From Candidatus Hadarchaeota archaeon (lineage in GTDB: Archaea; CAYQAE01; CAYVLA01), in assembly GCA_964621445.1 (NCBI GenBank), contig CAZUNO010000029.1:5186-32544 (forward strand): DNA of 27,359 nucleotides, written 5' to 3'. Under the pieces are notes generated by a model. The model was not told the DNA's origin, did no database searches, and worked only from the letters and a program-made list of their open reading frames with translations. The position numbers were made by a program, and so were the translations under genes. Positions 10,568-21,298 of the stretch are shown piece after piece. Position 1 is the stretch's first letter. Every line of letters starts with the position of its first letter.

Positions 10568-11665
10568 ATGTCGAGAATCAAGATCAAGTCCACCATATCC
10601 GAAATCGAACCCTATGTACCGGGAACATCCAGCCATGACACGGGACGACCCCTGACCAAGATGTCCTCGAACGAGAATCCCTACGGTCCATCCCCCCTGG
10701 CGGTGAGGGCCATAAGGGAACACTCCACCGAGGTCAACCGATATCCGGACAAGCAGGCCAGGGATTTGAAGGAGGCCCTCTCGGACCTACTGAAAACCCC
10801 CCAGGATTGTATTTACGTGGGCAATGGGTCCGATGATCTTCTACAGAACCTAGCCAAGCTATTTCTCTCCGAGGGACAGAACCTAGTGACCCACTCCCCC
10901 TTTTCCACTTACAAGACCATCGCGGCCAGCATGGGCGCTGAGAGACGCCTGGTTGGTCGTCCCGGCGACCTCGGTATCGACGTGGACTCCCTCATGGATG
11001 CATGCGATAAGGAAACGAGAATACTACTGGTATGCACTCCCAACAACCCCACCGGCACCATTCTTGGCCCTGATGATGTGGACAGGCTGGTCTCATTCAC
11101 CAGCGAGAGGAGAATGCTACTGGTGGTTGACGAGGCGTATTATGACTTCTCGGATCAATACCAATCCCCGGCCAACAGGATAGTCCCCGACCAGCTGGAT
11201 CTGGTGGTGACCAGGACCTTTTCCAAGGCCTACGGCCTTGCCGGTCTCCGAATCGGCTACGGCATAGCCACCTCGGAGATAGTTCGCTACCTGGACCTGG
11301 TCCGGATGCCCTTCAATGCCAGCTCCCTGGCCCAGGAAGCGGCCATAGCGGGCATAAAGGACCGGGAGCACTTCGATTCAACGGTAAAGAAGGTCAAGGA
11401 ACAGAGAGATCGACTTAGCCGGGATCTGGAGAGTATCGGTCTTGAGCCCGCGCCATCGGAGGCCAACTTCCTGCTGGTTTCCCTGGAGGGCACGGGCATG
11501 ACCGCATCGGAATTCACCCGGGAACTCCTCAACCATGGTTACGCCATCAGGGACTGCACCAGCTTTCAGCTACCTCGGCACGTCAGGATCACCGTGGGCA
11601 CCCCGGAGATGAACCAGGGGCTGGTAACGTCCATGGAGAAGGTGCTATCCGCTAATCATCGATGA
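10568..11665 (+). CDS. hisC: histidinol-phosphate aminotransferase (class II PLP enzyme)
   Basis: SSNENPYGPSP, NRYPD, GNGSD, PNNPTG, DEAY, RTFSKAYGLAGLRIGY. Confidence 0.85.
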   Translation: MSRIKIKSTISEIEPYVPGTSSHDTGRPLTKMSSNENPYGPSPLAVRAIREHSTEVNRYPDKQARDLKEALSDLLKTPQDCIYVGNGSDDLLQNLAKLFLSEGQNLVTHSPFSTYKTIAASMGAERRLVGRPGDLGIDVDSLMDACDKETRILLVCTPNNPTGTILGPDDVDRLVSFTSERRMLLVVDEAYYDFSDQYQSPANRIVPDQLDLVVTRTFSKAYGLAGLRIGYGIATSEIVRYLDLVRMPFNASSLAQEAAIAGIKDREHFDSTVKKVKEQRDRLSRDLESIGLEPAPSEANFLLVSLEGTGMTASEFTRELLNHGYAIRDCTSFQLPRHVRITVGTPEMNQGLVTSMEKVLSANHR

Positions 11666-12401
11666 ACCGCGATAGGTCGCTCTGGGGCGTTTTCCTCCGG
11701 AGCTTGAGAGGGTCGATCCTCTTCAGTTCCAGGTTATACCTGACCAGAAGTCTTCTGGCCTTGCTCGACGATGAGGGCGCCACCAGGACACCCCTCACCT
11801 TACCCTCGGTCTTTTTCTTCAGGGTCTCCACATATCGCTTAAGCTGCTCAACATCATGGGGCGTGGCCTTGGACCTCTTAACCTCCACAGCCACCGGGTT
11901 ACCCTCGGAATCGACCCCGCTTATGTCGATCCTCCCTGCCAGGGTAACCCTCTCATTCTTGCTCAGCTTGAACCCCTTCTCAATCAAGGAGGGATCGCTT
12001 ATCAGGTCCCTGACGAAATCCTTTTCGGTACCATGTAGATCTATTCTCTCGTAGTCCTCGAGGTCGAAGCTCTCCAGAATCTTTACCGAATGAACGGTGA
12101 TCTCCATTCTTTCCCGGCGACGGTGCTTAGTGCTCACCATCTTAAGGGCTCCATCGACCATCTTCAGCCTGGTCTTGGACCTGGGCGGCATCCAGTTCAC
12201 CGGATTTCTCCCCATTTTCTGGTGAACTATGACCGTGCCATCCCTCTTGAGGATGAGTATTCTCTCACCCTTGCCAAGCCTGGATTTGGCCCTTCCCTTG
12301 TAATCTATCTTACACTCACAAACCAGGAAAATCGTCTTCCCGGCCCTCATCCTCTCCAGAAGCTCTTCCTTAACCGAGCTTAATTCGCGTTCGAACGGCA
12401 A
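11652..12401 (-). CDS. nucS: endonuclease NucS/EndoMS
   Basis: Y.GRAKSRL..GERI.I.K.DG.V.VH, PVNWMPP, GRIDI...D......VEVKR, QLKRY; start placed at TTG 12401. Confidence 0.93.
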   Translation of the reverse strand: MPFERELSSVKEELLERMRAGKTIFLVCECKIDYKGRAKSRLGKGERILILKRDGTVIVHQKMGRNPVNWMPPRSKTRLKMVDGALKMVSTKHRRRERMEITVHSVKILESFDLEDYERIDLHGTEKDFVRDLISDPSLIEKGFKLSKNERVTLAGRIDISGVDSEGNPVAVEVKRSKATPHDVEQLKRYVETLKKKTEGKVRGVLVAPSSSSKARRLLVRYNLELKRIDPLKLRRKTPQSDLSRFIDD

Positions 12402-12484
12402 ACAACACCAATGGTTCCCCGGGTTCTTATATTTGATAGCCCCGGGATGTAAAGGATTATATCCCCGGATTCGTATCACCCAGC

Positions 12485-13024
12485 ATGCTGGAACCGCAGG
12501 ATGTCTCTCTACTGGTAGTAGATTTACAGGGCAAACTGGTCTCCCTTATGAGCGGAAAGGAGCAACTGATTGAGAATGTTCGCCGTCTCATAAAAGGAAT
12601 GAAGATCCTTGAGGTCCCAATAATATGGGTGGAGCAGAACCCCTCGGGGCTTGGACCTACCGTGACTGAGATAGCGGAGCTGATGCCCGAGCTGGACCCC
12701 TTGGAGAAGATGACCTTCAGTTGCTGCGGCAACCAGAGGGTCCTGAACAGTATACGGGCCACCGAACGCAAACATGTCCTTCTATCGGGCATTGAGACCC
12801 ACGTTTGTATCTACCAGACGGCCATTGAGCTTATGGAACTCGGGTACGGGGTGGAGGTAGTGGCCGATGCGGTGTCATCTCGCCGGGAGAGTGACAAGAG
12901 GGTCTCCATCCAGAGGATCCTGAGCCAAGGGGCTGGAATCACCTCTACCGAGATGGTTTTATTCGAGCTTCTCAAGATTGCCCAAGGGGATAGGTTCAAG
13001 AGCATACTCAAGCTAGTCAAGTAG
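12485..13024 (+). CDS. isochorismatase family hydrolase (YcaC/ISOC-like)
   Basis: LLVVDLQ, EQNP.GLG.TV, EKMTFSC, GIETHVCIYQT, DAVSSR. Confidence 0.92.
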   Translation: MLEPQDVSLLVVDLQGKLVSLMSGKEQLIENVRRLIKGMKILEVPIIWVEQNPSGLGPTVTEIAELMPELDPLEKMTFSCCGNQRVLNSIRATERKHVLLSGIETHVCIYQTAIELMELGYGVEVVADAVSSRRESDKRVSIQRILSQGAGITSTEMVLFELLKIAQGDRFKSILKLVK

Positions 13025-15161
13025 TCCTTTCCAATTTGCGGAGCACGGATCCTACCAGGATTCCCACCATCAGGACCGATACTAAAAAGGTAATTCCCTC
13101 GGAAATCGATTCCCTGAGCCTGAGGGGGTACTCGGTGAACTTCCTGGCCGGTCCCAGCTGACCCTCGTCGAAGAACTCCCGGGCCCGTTCCAGGAAAATC
13201 TCGTGCCTGGAGGTATCTATGCCCTTGTCCTTTGCCATCTCGATGGCCTCGGCGGCGGAATCGATCAATTTGGACACGATATCCCGTTCAATTTGGAAAG
13301 CAATGTTCTCCGCCTGCTCCAACTGGTGGGCCAGGGTTTCCCCGTCAATATGTACACCCAGTTGGGCCTCCAGATCCCTTGCATTCTCCGTCCAGTTCCC
13401 CACGCTAAGGTTCAGGCCACGTGCCTCTTCCAGCTTCTCCTGCACCTGGTCCAGGGTTAACATGATCTCTGCCAAGGTTCCCACCGGGGCCTTGGTCAGG
13501 TTCCATTCCCCAAACTTGTCAATGGCCAATAGATATCCCTGAAAGACGTCATCGGCCATGGCCTGGCTGACGTTTAGAAGCAGAGAATAACGTCCATCGC
13601 CCGAAAACCGGTCGGGTCCCGTGCCATCATCCCTCATCTCCATCTTCAGACCACCCTCGATCCTGGGATTGAGCCTGAAAATGACCCCCGATATCTCCTT
13701 TCCCGCGGGATGATTTACCTCCAGAGAGATCAATAATCCCTGCTCGGTTGAATTCATCGACAGCTCCCCGAAAGAAGGCACCTGGGGAGGTGATCCGCTC
13801 CAGTTACGGTACTCAAGATAGTCAAGCAGTGTATCCATGTTCCTGTGGAAGGTCCGGGAGATTATCCAACCGTCATCGACCCATCTACCCCATTCGTCCA
13901 GAGCATCGATGACCGAATTCACCTCGTCCTCCATCTCTTCGGCCCGCTGCTCCTTCTCTTGCTCGGTAAGTTCACGGTTCCGCCAGGCCAGGTAATCCTC
14001 CCGGCCCTTGTCCATGACCATCTGATACATCCTTATCGCTCCCTTTCCGTATCCCCCCTGCCAGCCATATCCGTATCTGCGCTCATCACCAAGATCGGAT
14101 ATATTGTAGGTGAGCTTCCTGTCCCTATCACAGTAAATGGGTATGTTCGTCCCCAGTTCGTAGAACCGGGCCCATGTGTCCTCTCCTATCCTTGATCGAT
14201 TGAACCATTCTATGGCCGCTGGTATCGGTTCCAAGTAGGTTTCGTTACCGGTGAAAAGGTAAAGCTCGAGGAGCGTTTCGATATTATCTCCCGTTACACG
14301 GCTGCAGACCGCCGGAGGTTCAAATGATCTCGCCCACGCGGGATTCATGTCCCAGTCGTATTGTTGTGCCCAGCCGGGTTGAGGCTCCTGGAGCTGGGAC
14401 TTTATTATGAAATCCCCGGCCCTTTCCGCGCTCTTCAGATATCTATGGTCACCGTAGAGTTCATAGGCCTCCATCATGGTGGAAATACAGTCGTTAATGA
14501 CCTGATCATTGAAGGTGTAGTAATCCGAATACCTGTCGGGATAATCCCCTGATAGCGGATATACCTGGGGCCACGCCCCGTTCGGGAACTGGCTCTCCAT
14601 CATGAAATCCAGGGCGTACATGGTCGCCTCTGTGTAGGGATCCCTCTCCATTATCTGGTCCACGCCCATAAGTAGCCGTATAGCACTCTGGCTCACATCG
14701 TCGTCGAAGGTCACCCAGTTATCATCGTCGGGATCACCATCTGCCTCGTGCCTGTACCTATAATTTCCCTCACCCAGAAAATCGATAACATATCGCCATC
14801 CGCCGCTCTCCATCTGCCCCCATATCAGGGAATCCGCTACCGCTACCGCGGCCTCCAGATACCTCTCATCACCCGTTACCTGGTATGCCCTGAGGTAGGT
14901 CTGGCCAAAGGTCGGAGTACCAGGCGGCTGGACCCAGATTCTGGTGGGAGCCTCCGTTCCCTCCCCTATCCACACGGTGAGATCCTCGCTGTATTCACCC
15001 AGGTATCCCCCGTGACAGGACAGATTGGTCCGGAAAAAACGGGTTGCATCCCTCATGGCACGGATAGCCCTCTGCGAGGTGTTGTCCGAGGCCATGGCCC
15101 CGGCCGAAGACAGGGTAACCATAATGATAGTAAAGATCGCGATTTCTGTGGCCGTGTTCAT
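13017..15161 (-). CDS. secreted, membrane-anchored polysaccharide lyase family 10 (pectic acid lyase/PelA-like)
   Basis: N-terminal signal peptide; PL10 motifs TFDD, QFPNGAWPQ.YP, TFND, GWAQQYD...PAWARSFEP, WARFYE..TN.PIYCDRD, ERRYGY.W; then a DDG..D...GDG.YS module, a helical stalk and a C-terminal TM with basic tail. Confidence 0.85.
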   Translation of the reverse strand: MNTATEIAIFTIIMVTLSSAGAMASDNTSQRAIRAMRDATRFFRTNLSCHGGYLGEYSEDLTVWIGEGTEAPTRIWVQPPGTPTFGQTYLRAYQVTGDERYLEAAVAVADSLIWGQMESGGWRYVIDFLGEGNYRYRHEADGDPDDDNWVTFDDDVSQSAIRLLMGVDQIMERDPYTEATMYALDFMMESQFPNGAWPQVYPLSGDYPDRYSDYYTFNDQVINDCISTMMEAYELYGDHRYLKSAERAGDFIIKSQLQEPQPGWAQQYDWDMNPAWARSFEPPAVCSRVTGDNIETLLELYLFTGNETYLEPIPAAIEWFNRSRIGEDTWARFYELGTNIPIYCDRDRKLTYNISDLGDERRYGYGWQGGYGKGAIRMYQMVMDKGREDYLAWRNRELTEQEKEQRAEEMEDEVNSVIDALDEWGRWVDDGWIISRTFHRNMDTLLDYLEYRNWSGSPPQVPSFGELSMNSTEQGLLISLEVNHPAGKEISGVIFRLNPRIEGGLKMEMRDDGTGPDRFSGDGRYSLLLNVSQAMADDVFQGYLLAIDKFGEWNLTKAPVGTLAEIMLTLDQVQEKLEEARGLNLSVGNWTENARDLEAQLGVHIDGETLAHQLEQAENIAFQIERDIVSKLIDSAAEAIEMAKDKGIDTSRHEIFLERAREFFDEGQLGPARKFTEYPLRLRESISEGITFLVSVLMVGILVGSVLRKLERTT

Positions 15162-18185: not shown

Positions 18186-18773
18186 CTATATTTCCATTAT
18201 CTCCTCGAGATTTTCACGGATTTCCCGCTCCACACTGGCGTGAATGCTCTCTCCCTTGGCGTCCATGGTCACCACCAGGGGCGAAAACCTCTCCACCTGG
18301 AGCTCGTATATGGCCTCCGGACCCATCTCCTCCCAGATAATCCGTCTCAATTTCCTGATGCTCCTGGTATAGAGGGTTGCACAGCCCCCGATAGCCGATG
18401 CGTAAACGCAGCCCGTTTTTCCCATCTGGGAGAGCACACCCTCGTCCATGCCCCCCTTGCCTATGATCATCCTTAGGTCCAGCGACCCTATCATTTCGGG
18501 GGTGATGGAATTCATTCTCGCCGATGTGGTGGGTCCTATGGACATTATCCTCACGTCCCCGCCCTCCTTCTTTACGGCCGGGCCGGCATGGAAGAGCACC
18601 GAATTGGCAAGGTCCACCGGCAAATCCTTCCCCTCCCTTATCATTTGAAGGAGGCGAAGGCAGGCCTGGTCCCGCATCGAGTAGATGGTTCCAGATATCG
18701 ATACCCTGGTCCCCACCTCCAGATCCGCCACATCCTTCCTCGACAGGGGGGTCTTCAGCTCCACGGTTATCAA
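18186..18773 (-). CDS. class I fumarate hydratase / L-tartrate dehydratase, beta subunit
   Basis: SGTIYSMRD, HAGP, GPTTSARM, IGKGGM, MD.KG.S. Confidence 0.92.
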   Translation of the reverse strand: MITVELKTPLSRKDVADLEVGTRVSISGTIYSMRDQACLRLLQMIREGKDLPVDLANSVLFHAGPAVKKEGGDVRIMSIGPTTSARMNSITPEMIGSLDLRMIIGKGGMDEGVLSQMGKTGCVYASAIGGCATLYTRSIRKLRRIIWEEMGPEAIYELQVERFSPLVVTMDAKGESIHASVEREIRENLEEIMEI

Positions 18774-19642
18774 TCCATCACCTCAAACCCCGTATCATCC
18801 ACAGCCGCGGTGGCCCTTCTATGGGCCCAGCAGCTCATGTTTACGGCGATGGGACTGCAGGTTATGTGGGTGTCCTCGGACTCAAGTGATACCCACAGGG
18901 CCGATGAGTCCCCTCCAAGCCCCATGGGGCCTATTCCCAGTCCATTAATCCTCTCCAACAGCCGGGCTTCCAATCCAGCCAGCTCCGGGTCCGGATTATT
19001 ACTCCCCAGAGGGCGGGTCAGGGCCCTCTTTGACAACACGGCCACCGAGTCAAATGACCCCCCTATTCCCACGCCGACCACCACCGGGGGACATGACTTA
19101 GCACCCCCGGAGGCCACAGTCTCCAGGATAAACCTCTCCATTCCCTCCCAACCCTTAACCGGATCCAGCATGGCCAACCGGCTCCTGCTCTCGGAACCCG
19201 AGCCCTTGGCTAGCAAGGTCATTTTGATCCCTTCATCCCCGGCACCGAATCTCGCGTGTACCATGGGGTAGCCTCGACCGCGATTATCCCCGGTATTGTC
19301 CCTGGTCAGGACATCCACGCAGTTCGCCCTAAGAGAATGATCCCTGGTCGCCCATGCCACACCCTCAGCAACCGCTTCATCCAGATCGAAATCCAGTACA
19401 CAGCCCGGGCCTACATCCACGAAGAATACGGGAAAGCCGGTATCCTGGCAAATGAGCTCCTTTTTTTCCTCGGCCATCTCGGCATTTTGAATCATGGAAT
19501 CGAGAACCGATCTGGCGTTGGCATCGGTCTCCCCCTCCCTGGCCTCTTTCAAACGCCTCTTAACATCTCCGGGTAGAACCCTCAAGGCCTTCCAGTAGAG
19601 GGAGGAGCTGCACTCAGCTATGGTCGAGAATTCAATTTGCAA
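18770..19642 (-). CDS. class I fumarate hydratase / L-tartrate dehydratase, alpha (Fe-S) subunit
   Basis: ICQDTG, KGSGSE, CPPVVVGVGIGG, GIGPMGLGG, SCWAHRR; start uncertain (TTG 19642 or GTG 19663). Confidence 0.92.
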   Translation of the reverse strand: MQIEFSTIAECSSSLYWKALRVLPGDVKRRLKEAREGETDANARSVLDSMIQNAEMAEEKKELICQDTGFPVFFVDVGPGCVLDFDLDEAVAEGVAWATRDHSLRANCVDVLTRDNTGDNRGRGYPMVHARFGAGDEGIKMTLLAKGSGSESRSRLAMLDPVKGWEGMERFILETVASGGAKSCPPVVVGVGIGGSFDSVAVLSKRALTRPLGSNNPDPELAGLEARLLERINGLGIGPMGLGGDSSALWVSLESEDTHITCSPIAVNMSCWAHRRATAAVDDTGFEVMD

Positions 19643-19710
19643 GTAGCAATACCTTGGTTCCACTCGCCTAAAAATCTGTTCAGTAGGCTAGAAACCAAAT
19701 GGAAAGACCT

Positions 19711-19717
19711 AAAAAAA
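19711..19717 (-). terminator. oligo-T archaeal terminator candidate
   Basis: T7 run on the minus strand shortly after the last GC-rich hairpin of the structured segment. Confidence 0.5.
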
Positions 19718-19761
19718 TAGATGGATTTGCGGGGAGACGGACGACAAGACATCCCGCCACA

Positions 19762-20102
19762 CCTCTTGTGAGGCTCGGCGTGGAGGTCTGCCTCTTAGCT
19801 GGTTCCTCAAGCCGATCACGATGGAAGAATCGGGATCAGCCGCGCCTCAGTGAGACCAGCTCCTCGAAAGGACACTGTTTCATCGAGTTTTCCCCGGAAA
19901 AGACGGCGAAAACACGAGCGTCTTCCACAGCAAGGTCTTGGCGTGCTGGAGCACGCTTGACCCTTCTGCCAAGAACAGGCAAAAAGCCCGGAGCTTCTTT
20001 CCGGCAGCATCCGTCCCCTGACCGCTCCTATGCCCCTCCAACCGACAGGTTTGCAGGGAGGCGAACAGGGAATGGGGTTACCAGTCCTCTTCTGAGGCTC
20101 GG
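19762..20102. repeat. 17-nt direct repeat CCTCTT(G/C)TGAGGCTCGG at 19762-19778 and 20086-20102
   Basis: 16/17 identity read directly from the sequence. Confidence 0.85.
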
Positions 20103-20406
20103 ATCTGGGAACCCCGATCCTTTGCTTGCTCCTTTACAGCCACCTTCCCGGGACGGGGGAGGCGACCAGACCTCAACGGAGCAAGATCCTCAACGGGTAG
20201 CCACATCTTGCCGGACGTTCTCGGGGAAAACGATCACGACCGGGGCAATCCCGTGGCCGACGATGCTGACCGTTTTAGGCTTGACGCCTGATATCGGTCG
20301 ACACCGGACACGAACCCTGGATCCAGAGGACCCGGGGTCTTTCCCGTGACGTTCACTTCCTATCTGCCCTGCCAGTCACGACGGGGATTAATGTAATGTC
20401 ATTGGC

Positions 20407-20416
20407 CTATAAAAGC
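20407..20416 (-). promoter_or_regulatory. TATA box candidate for the structured RNA
   Basis: CTTTTATAGG on the minus strand, about 25 nt upstream of where the GC-rich structured region begins; also readable as TATAAAA on the plus strand. Confidence 0.5.
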
Positions 20417-20575
20417 TTAACGATCGGCGTTAAAACAAGGCCTTAGCAGCTCTATTTTTCCCTTATCATGTAAAATTAAACGTCAGTTAATAAAGAAGCA
20501 TGTCAAATCATCTAATCTCGTGTTGTAAAACCCGCTGTTCCATCATAGATATAAATCCCCGGTTCCCCATTATGG

Positions 20576-20956: not shown

Positions 20957-21298
20957 TTGGCCAGCAGGATTAAAGAAAAGATATCCGATTTCTTCCGTGC
21001 CACTGCAGTCCTAAGGGCAGAGATGCCGGAATGTAACGGATGTGGCATGCATTTCAACAAGGAGAAATACGGCCACGAATGCGAATATCCCGGATGCACC
21101 ACAATTCTGTGTCCGAAGTGCAGGTTCTGTTCCAAGCACGCCCAGTGCCCGGACTGCGGCAAGCTGTTCCTGGTCGATACCGGACACGCGTGCGGGGATC
21201 CATACTGCGACAAGCTTCTTTGCCCCAACTGTGGACCATACTGCGAGGAGCATGCAGAACAGGAAGATACCTACGAGGATGAACGCTTCGAGTACTAG
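20957..21298 (+). CDS. Cys/His-rich tandem zinc-finger protein
   Basis: Two repeats of C-x2-C-x9/10-H-x-C-x4-C-x4-C-x2-C-x2/3-C-x2-H and an acidic tail; alternative ATG at 21023. Confidence 0.75.
   Translation: MASRIKEKISDFFRATAVLRAEMPECNGCGMHFNKEKYGHECEYPGCTTILCPKCRFCSKHAQCPDCGKLFLVDTGHACGDPYCDKLLCPNCGPYCEEHAEQEDTYEDERFEY

Follow-up and report, generated by a model that had tools for sequence, protein, structure and literature searches.

The 27,359-nt stretch of Candidatus Hadarchaeota DNA analyzed here (the window) raises the question of why a single 17-base motif, CCGAGCCUC-A(G/C)AA-GAGG, is carried twice on its minus strand with the two copies 324 nt apart, and what kind of gene would hold such an element in duplicate. 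The sequence-only reading of this locus had reported the repeat and had argued that it is no chance duplication, and the sequence confirms the repeat as it was described. The two copies lie at the following positions.

20102..20086, minus strand: motif copy 1, CCGAGCCTCAGAAGAGG (= CCGAGCCUCAGAAGAGG)
19778..19762, minus strand: motif copy 2, CCGAGCCTCACAAGAGG (= CCGAGCCUCACAAGAGG)

A repeated motif confined to copies of one RNA

The two copies in the window agree at 16 of 17 core bases, with flanks that have diverged. When up to two mismatches are allowed, the motif pattern matches the 27,359-base window twice, compared with a chance mean of 0.07 (sd 0.26), and none of 100 shuffled windows contained two or more matches. 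Extending the search to the whole 3.2-Mb genome with a looser form of the motif, CCNANCCTCANNAGAGG, produced four matches, compared with none for a reversed-pattern control, and all four fall inside two copies of one RNA. The excess over chance in the window and the confinement of the genomic matches to the two RNA copies together dispose of a chance duplication, as the sequence-only reading had maintained. The bare hairpin CCTCANNAGAGG is by comparison at background level (17 genome matches, four of them inside the RNAs, versus 16 in the control), and the distinctive feature is therefore the hairpin together with its 5' flank.

Distribution of the RNA

The second copy of the RNA in the window's own genome (G000) is on another contig. 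A BLAST search of 41 genomes found the RNA, apart from the window's own genome, in its three family relatives and nowhere in the remaining 37. An exact-pattern scan of 185,579 species genomes matched four contigs, all of them from those relatives, and a metagenome scan matched seven stretches. After duplicate removal the collection comprises nine loci, six of them full-length and three cut at the 5' end, with an additional 5' fragment (G003 C95) that overlaps the cut locus G003 C191 and is counted with it as one locus. In that genome the end of L013 and the start of L008 (contigs C95 and C191) overlap within the RNA, and the assembly splits one locus at this point.

A covariance model of the 3' sub-domain of the RNA recovered exactly four domains in the window's own genome and had matches in four of the five genomes of the phylum; when applied to 151 archaeal genomes, it was positive in all four family genomes and gave nothing real in the 147 others. 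The sole match outside the family (G077, E 0.002) is without the module and sits inside a 391-aa ORF, and it was rejected as a chance match rather than a single-domain relative. Indeed, no monomeric (single-domain) relative was found among the archaeal genomes searched with the covariance model. There were no matches to the RNA in viral contigs, phages, or plasmids, and a mobile-element origin was rejected on this basis; a nuclease, transposase, or reverse-transcriptase neighbor of the type associated with mobile-element or guide RNAs (omega/reRNA, retron, DGR, group II intron) was likewise not found. The relatives are publicly labelled either Candidatus Hadarchaeota or uncultured Thermococci, indicating that the lineage, with five species genomes of the phylum, is poorly placed, and the family genomes, at 2.4-4.0 Mb, are larger than most archaeal genomes among those listed (0.5-2.2 Mb).

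Two homologous domains in tandem

Alignment, RNAalifold, and pair counts delimit two domains, each closed by its own long-range helix P1 and each containing one copy of the motif.

20053..20367, minus strand: domain A, closing helix P1 formed by 20367..20352 with 20065..20053
19729..20025, minus strand: domain B, closing helix P1 formed by 20025..20010 with 19741..19729

The two domains are homologous to each other. An HMM built from the B domains (nhmmer) matches seven of eight A-domain sequences with E values of 1.4e-23 to 6.3e-36, and the eighth, a 209-nt 5' fragment, with an E value of 3.7e-06; in the reverse direction the A-domain HMM matches all nine B domains (E 3.1e-13 to 2.8e-32), and none of 850 shuffled sequences (400 + 450) matched the domain HMMs at E<=10. 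The resulting domain alignment contains 15 half-units and 350 columns, 49 of which are invariant. In the tree, six A units are separated from nine B units by a branch with 100/99 support, a split that places the duplication before the divergence of all known copies. By these sequence comparisons the RNA is a tandem duplication of a ~320-nt domain, with a two-domain architecture.

This result changes how the repeat is to be understood. The sequence-only reading had seen the motif on two stems of unrelated sequence and had taken this as a sign of selection. The closing helices that it described are present, GGGGUUCCCAG/CUGGUAACCCC in copy 1 and CCACG/UGUGG in copy 2, but they occupy homologous positions and are not unrelated stems; in the alignment of the relatives, both module copies sit on CCAG/CUGG. 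The stems in the window look unrelated because the window RNA is the most diverged copy, with the longest terminal branches in the tree (0.69 and 0.71). The argument from the same motif on different stems is thus not supported, since the copies are homologous by descent and are the apical modules of two duplicated halves.

Domain structure and a covarying pseudoknot

RNAalifold applied to the pooled domains gives 54 pairs in eight helices. In these helices 91.8% of 805 cells are paired, compared with 84.1% in shuffled alignments and 39-55% when the partners are slid, and 29 of the 54 pairs are changed on both sides; none of 500 shuffles reaches any of five measures, although the structures were counted on the alignments from which they were derived, and the 15-16 units come from nine loci of close kin, so that the shuffle controls overstate the support. 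The 3' sub-domain counted separately gives the same covariation picture. The P1 helix of domain B illustrates the type of change observed, with compensatory exchanges of GC to AU at 402:696 (GC in five, AU in three, GU in one) and at 405:693 (GC in seven, AU in two). The helices also carry a strand signal, in that 739 of the 805 cells are canonical when read on the minus strand (91 of these being G-U), versus 668 of 805 on the opposite strand. The RNA stretch of the window has a minimum free energy of -314.8 kcal/mol (z = -6.8), and none of 20 shuffles was equally stable.

A 5-bp pseudoknot, pseudoknot 1, is supported by covariation in both domains.

20248..20252 with 20154..20150, minus strand: pseudoknot 1 of domain A, GGGAU with GUCCC
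19922..19926 with 19827..19823, minus strand: pseudoknot 1 of domain B, GGAAG with CUUCC

The pseudoknot pairs an invariant central GGGA(U/G) with the loop of an inner hairpin, (A/C)U(C/U)CC, and all 75 cells across 15 domains are canonical, a result matched by none of 2000 shuffles, where the loop strand was chosen by motif search from one or two candidates per unit. The exchanges are U-A in the A domains, G-C in the B domains, and A-U in domain B of the window, where a double change has turned GGGAG into GGAAG and CUCCC into CUUCC.

The module and its possible partners

The motif forms the core of a module at the tip of the last hairpin in each domain.

20081..20108, minus strand: module copy 1, CCAG-AUCCGAG-CCUC-AGAA-GAGG-A-CUGG
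19757..19783, minus strand: module copy 2, CCAC-GCCGAG-CCUC-ACAA-GAGG-U-GUGG
20071..20119, minus strand: module stem-loop of domain A, outer helix 20119..20105 with 20084..20071
19747..19793, minus strand: module stem-loop of domain B, outer helix 19793..19780 with 19760..19747

The motif is retained in 16 of 16 aligned domain copies from the nine loci, and its loss from homologs would have counted against the proposal of a selected element. The module as a whole, 28 columns wide, holds 19 of the 49 invariant columns and is the part of the domain where they lie most densely, and its outer helix (helix 7) has 13 pairs, of which eight are changed on both sides, with 92.2% of cells paired. The claim that the motif is under selection is upheld on these grounds, and the combination of a strongly conserved module with a compensatory outer helix supports a selected docking or binding element, this being the pattern that such an element would be expected to leave.

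The pairing adopted by the module is a separate matter. The sequence-only reading had described a one-sided bulge next to a 4-bp tetraloop hairpin, and RNAfold produces a CCUC/GAGG hairpin of 4-5 bp in eight of 15 module sequences, while the other seven, including copy 1 of the window, fold instead into an extended stem (YCC:GGR) with a 13-nt loop. The full-length minimum free energy structure also gives copy 1 of the window the extended stem and not the hairpin, and for copy 2 the prediction is a hairpin on a shifted outer register (CGCCG/UGGCG), which is without the one-sided bulge. All four CCUC/GAGG pairs are invariant in 16 of 16 units and hence show no covariation, which means that covariation neither proves nor disproves the hairpin. 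Some support for it comes from the flanking position, which is U-A in three cases, G-U in one, and A-U in one, beside G.A and G.G.

A blind scan for stacked, mostly canonical column runs suggested a different partner for the same bases, pairing the module's N'CCUCA with UGAGGN of an invariant GUUGAGG strand of the same domain.

20170..20177, minus strand: GUUGAGGU strand of domain A, candidate long-range partner of the module GCCUCA
19844..19851, minus strand: ACUGAGGC strand of domain B, candidate long-range partner of the module GCCUCA

In this candidate pseudoknot 2 (6 bp), 92 of 96 cells are paired (95.8%), and the distal GAGG is invariant in 16 of 16 units. The variable end pair is CG in nine units, AU in three, UG in two, and other combinations in two, and 3 of 500 shuffles reach its covariation score, a figure that rests on one variable pair with probably one or two independent events and two mismatches. 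As to whether the pairing would be within or across domains, a comparison by eye shows three B domains that favor the within-domain partner and one locus, G000 C11, that favors the cross-domain partner. On the sequence evidence the GCCUCA:UGAGGC pairing would fit equally as well as the local CCUC/GAGG hairpin. When the bulge and loop bases were tested column by column for covarying partners, nothing specific emerged; the variable purine pairs canonically with any invariant U, which is uninformative.

Several known motifs were considered for the module and rejected. Kink-turn/L7Ae sites are common in archaea, and the module of this archaeal RNA resembles them in that its canonical helix and its short helix flank an asymmetric internal loop containing purines. 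A K-turn is defined by a 3-nt bulge followed by tandem sheared G.A/A.G pairs, whereas the module has a bulge of 6-7 nt, a single unpaired base opposite, and an A in place of the candidate first sheared G in six of 15 domains. A GNRA tetraloop has the form G-N-R-A, and the loop of the module starts with A in 15 of 15 aligned domains (AGAA, AAGA, ACAA, AGCA, and AAAA). In an archaeal bulge-helix-bulge, 4 bp lie between two 3-nt bulges, one on each strand, and the module has one 6-7-nt bulge only, with its 4-bp stem capped by a loop. In two loci the domain A module (L019:2868-2948, minus, and L022:8427-8507, minus) has a 6-nt loop, GGUUUG, that replaces the A..A tetraloop, with CCUC and GAGG retained.

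The predicted transcript and its genomic context

The two domains occupy a gene-free stretch between the class I fumarase alpha-subunit gene fumA (18770..19663, minus), which adjoins the motif-bearing stretch, and small plus-strand ORFs.

19711..20388, minus strand: two-domain structured RNA, predicted transcript of about 660-680 nt (inferred ends)
20406..20422, minus strand: promoter-like element, CGUUAAG + CUUUUAUAGG, ~20-25 nt upstream of the conserved 5' sequence
19711..19717, minus strand: T7 run, 12 nt past the last helix, likely transcription stop

The promoter-like element (CG.UAAG/C-TTTTTAAG) is found at an equal distance in six other copies of the RNA, and its CG.UAAG with a T-rich box is presumably an archaeal BRE/TATA promoter. 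Archaeal transcription terminates at oligo-T, and T-runs are found within about 20 nt downstream in five of nine copies. The promoter-like element together with the terminator-like T-run leads us to infer a stand-alone transcript of about 660-680 nt, with its transcription, ends, and strand predicted from these sequence features. A 216-aa antisense ORF on the plus strand (19699..20349) spans nearly the entire RNA, and gene callers are likely to label it as a hypothetical protein.

Six of the nine loci (the window, G001, G002, G003 C191, L019, and L021) are directly upstream of and co-directional with fumA, with a downstream operon composed of fumA-fumB and a MOFRL-type (glycerate) kinase gene. 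Across the loci the neighbors of the RNA encode fumarase, the MOFRL kinase, a B12-binding protein, a glycosyl hydrolase, a cupin, and a coiled-coil protein, none of which showed an RNA-binding domain. Between the RNA and fumA, at 19664..19680 (minus), there is a conserved TATA-like element, GAUUUUUAGG, with similar elements in four other loci, and it ends 4 nt before the predicted GTG start of fumA. The true fumA start is probably further downstream, which would make the mRNA leaderless or short-leadered. On the other side of the RNA, between it and the B12-binding protein gene, a 91-aa Cys-rich ORF at 21023..21298 (plus) has by eye several Cys pairs that give it a zinc-ribbon-like appearance, and it has no Pfam match.

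The coiled-coil protein, of about 550 aa, adjoins the second copy of the RNA in G000 and G003 (40% identity, E 5e-84).

L002:147-1205, plus strand: coiled-coil protein with conserved C-terminal globular domain
L014:3524-5206, minus strand: coiled-coil protein with conserved C-terminal globular domain

It is encoded in all four family genomes and was not found in the fifth genome of the phylum, and in G001 and G002 its gene is not adjacent to the RNA. It may be a partner of the RNA, or the adjacency may be plain synteny.

Alternative explanations

If the region instead encoded a plus-strand protein, with the 216-aa ORF as its gene, the nucleotide repeat would be that of a repeated peptide, and long antisense ORFs are indeed present at several homologous loci. 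Such a protein is hardly credible, as the ORF is without a Pfam family, the lengths of 201 of 224 pairwise indel runs are not divisible by three, substitutions are even over the three phases with 3-base periodicity absent, and the compensatory base-pair changes and the 91 G-U cells match a minus-strand RNA; a coding reading was rejected on the indel and substitution patterns and the missing Pfam match. It is also very improbable that the identity of the two motif copies is a by-product of recent gene conversion and has no function of its own. Conversion between the halves does appear to take place, since a single indel is the only difference between the A and B modules of G003 C24 over about 45 nt (L005, about 1500-1550 and 1810-1860), which suggests that it is recent and occasional. 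In the window, however, the identity ends at the 17-nt core (16 of 17 bases) and the flanks are diverged, the A and B units form separate clades, and the core is kept in 16 of 16 units across lineages in which the outer helices have changed.

The remaining alternatives leave the RNA in place and differ in what it would do. It may be a long cis-acting leader, with two tandem sensor domains that control the fumA-fumB-glycerate kinase operon and with the modules lying within the sensing fold. Such a leader would be expected, in most members, to sit in the 5' UTR of the gene that it regulates without a promoter in between. The position of six of nine loci upstream of fumA in the same direction, the presence of one fumA-upstream copy in each of the four genomes, and the resemblance of two homologous tandem domains to tandem aptamers all speak for such a leader, but we consider it unlikely: three of nine copies (G000 C11, G003 C24, and L022) are away from fumarase, the T-run after the RNA is followed by a second conserved TATA-like element before fumA, and the upstream B12-binding gene is syntenic too, so that the linkage to fumA may be plain synteny among close kin. 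Each of the domains is also of a size that riboswitch aptamers are not known to reach. A trans-acting, stably folded RNA that would present two equivalent modules is favored on the sequence evidence, with the cis role at fumarase as its main rival. In a different type of explanation, the module would be a sequence-specific protein-binding site, composed of the bulge and the 4-bp tetraloop hairpin and present twice in order to bind two copies of a protein or a dimer. We regard this as possible, if somewhat doubtful. The apparently unpaired bases (CC.A of the bulge and the A at either end of the loop) are invariant in 15 of 15 domains and would make a typical recognition surface, RNAalifold on the pooled domains picks the hairpin, the hairpin-closing position shows the U-A, G-U, and A-U combinations beside G.A noted above, and the family-specific coiled-coil protein adjoins the second RNA copy in two genomes. 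Against a protein site stand the CCUC/GAGG stem without covariation, the 6-nt loop that replaces the tetraloop in two metagenomic copies, the failure of the module to follow the K-turn pattern, and the coiled-coil gene, which is away from the RNA in two of four genomes, with no RNA-binding domain seen in any neighbor.

Proposed explanation

The explanation that we prefer, to which we assign a probability of roughly 0.6, is that the two motif copies are homologous apical modules of a ~660-nt stand-alone ncRNA of no described family that arose by tandem duplication, and that the module is a selected docking element. According to this proposal, a pseudoknotted ~320-nt domain would have been duplicated in tandem before the known copies diverged, each domain consisting of a long-range closing helix, several covarying helices, the 5-bp pseudoknot, and a long hairpin tipped by the module. 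The module would be held by purifying selection as a docking element, with the role of locking or presenting the 3' sub-domain, which it could do in either of two forms. In one, CCUC would pair with the local GAGG to form a 4-5-bp hairpin on a purine-rich asymmetric loop, providing a surface for a protein or for A-minor contacts, and in the other, GCCUCA would pair with the invariant UGAGGC strand of the same domain in an intradomain pseudoknot; it is conceivable that the module alternates between its local and distal GAGG partners. Duplication of the domain would then have created two equivalent sites and with them a built-in pseudo-dimer.

A more speculative extension, which we offer only tentatively and with rather more doubt than confidence, is that the RNA represents the first archaeal class of large "ornate" ncRNAs, an intramolecular pseudo-dimer in which the two invariant modules serve as symmetric docking points, possibly switching between hairpin and pseudoknot or forming a bridge to a dimeric protein or to further RNA copies. 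Large, highly structured ncRNAs whose function is unknown are seldom found, and the ones that have been studied well come from bacteria. The present RNA would add an archaeal example of ~660 nt, in which the helices covary, at least one pseudoknot is present, and the two halves form a clean internal repeat; if the extension is true, it would have built in cis the kind of symmetric assembly that homo-oligomerisation gives OLE, ROOL, and GOLLD. It also provides a natural example of an RNA domain that was duplicated and then diverged, and as a compact molecule it would suit probing or cryo-EM, within the practical limits set by uncultured hosts and nine known loci only. The repeated module would provide a precise mutational handle for such work in the form of its three invariant strands, CCUC, the local GAGG, and the distal GAGG.

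Comparison with known RNAs

The large "ornate" bacterial RNA OLE measures about 600 nt. OLE, ROOL, and GOLLD form symmetric assemblies in which A-minor contacts and kissing loops hold identical units together (Kretsch et al., bioRxiv 10.1101/2024.12.08.627333). The RNA described here is similar to these three in its size class, in its many conserved helices with invariant unpaired bases, and in its narrow, environment-linked distribution, and it differs from them in its archaeal host, in having no Rfam match at E<=10, and in that its symmetry would be in cis, with two diverged domains in one chain. The tandem glycine riboswitch shares with the present RNA the arrangement of two homologous domains, each with its own P1, joined by a short linker in one transcript, but the domains described here are larger by a factor of about three, the RNA comes with a promoter-like element and a T-run of its own, and three of nine copies are not upstream of the same gene. 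Dimeric Alu is a functional RNA derived from two diverged tandem copies of one ancestral unit and is similar in this respect, although for the present RNA no monomeric relative was found, and it is not a mobile element.

A search with Rfam 15, whose families include RNase P, SRP, OLE, ROOL, GOLLD, group I/II introns, and riboswitches, gave no match in the window at gathering score, and at E<=10 there was no match on the RNA in the window or in four homologous loci. The passages returned by a full-text literature search on Hadarchaeota and on archaeal structured or large ncRNAs contained no description of such an RNA. A divergent RNase P or SRP RNA was rejected as an identity for it, since the genome encodes both of these, like its 23S rRNA, on other contigs. 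Mimicry of a 23S rRNA site by the module was also rejected, as the 23S rRNA contig has no copy of the bare hairpin. On one of these contigs (G000:C17) the RNase P RNA gene (11560-11900, plus) is about 120 nt from the 23S rRNA gene (12023-15055, minus), with the two genes on opposite strands.
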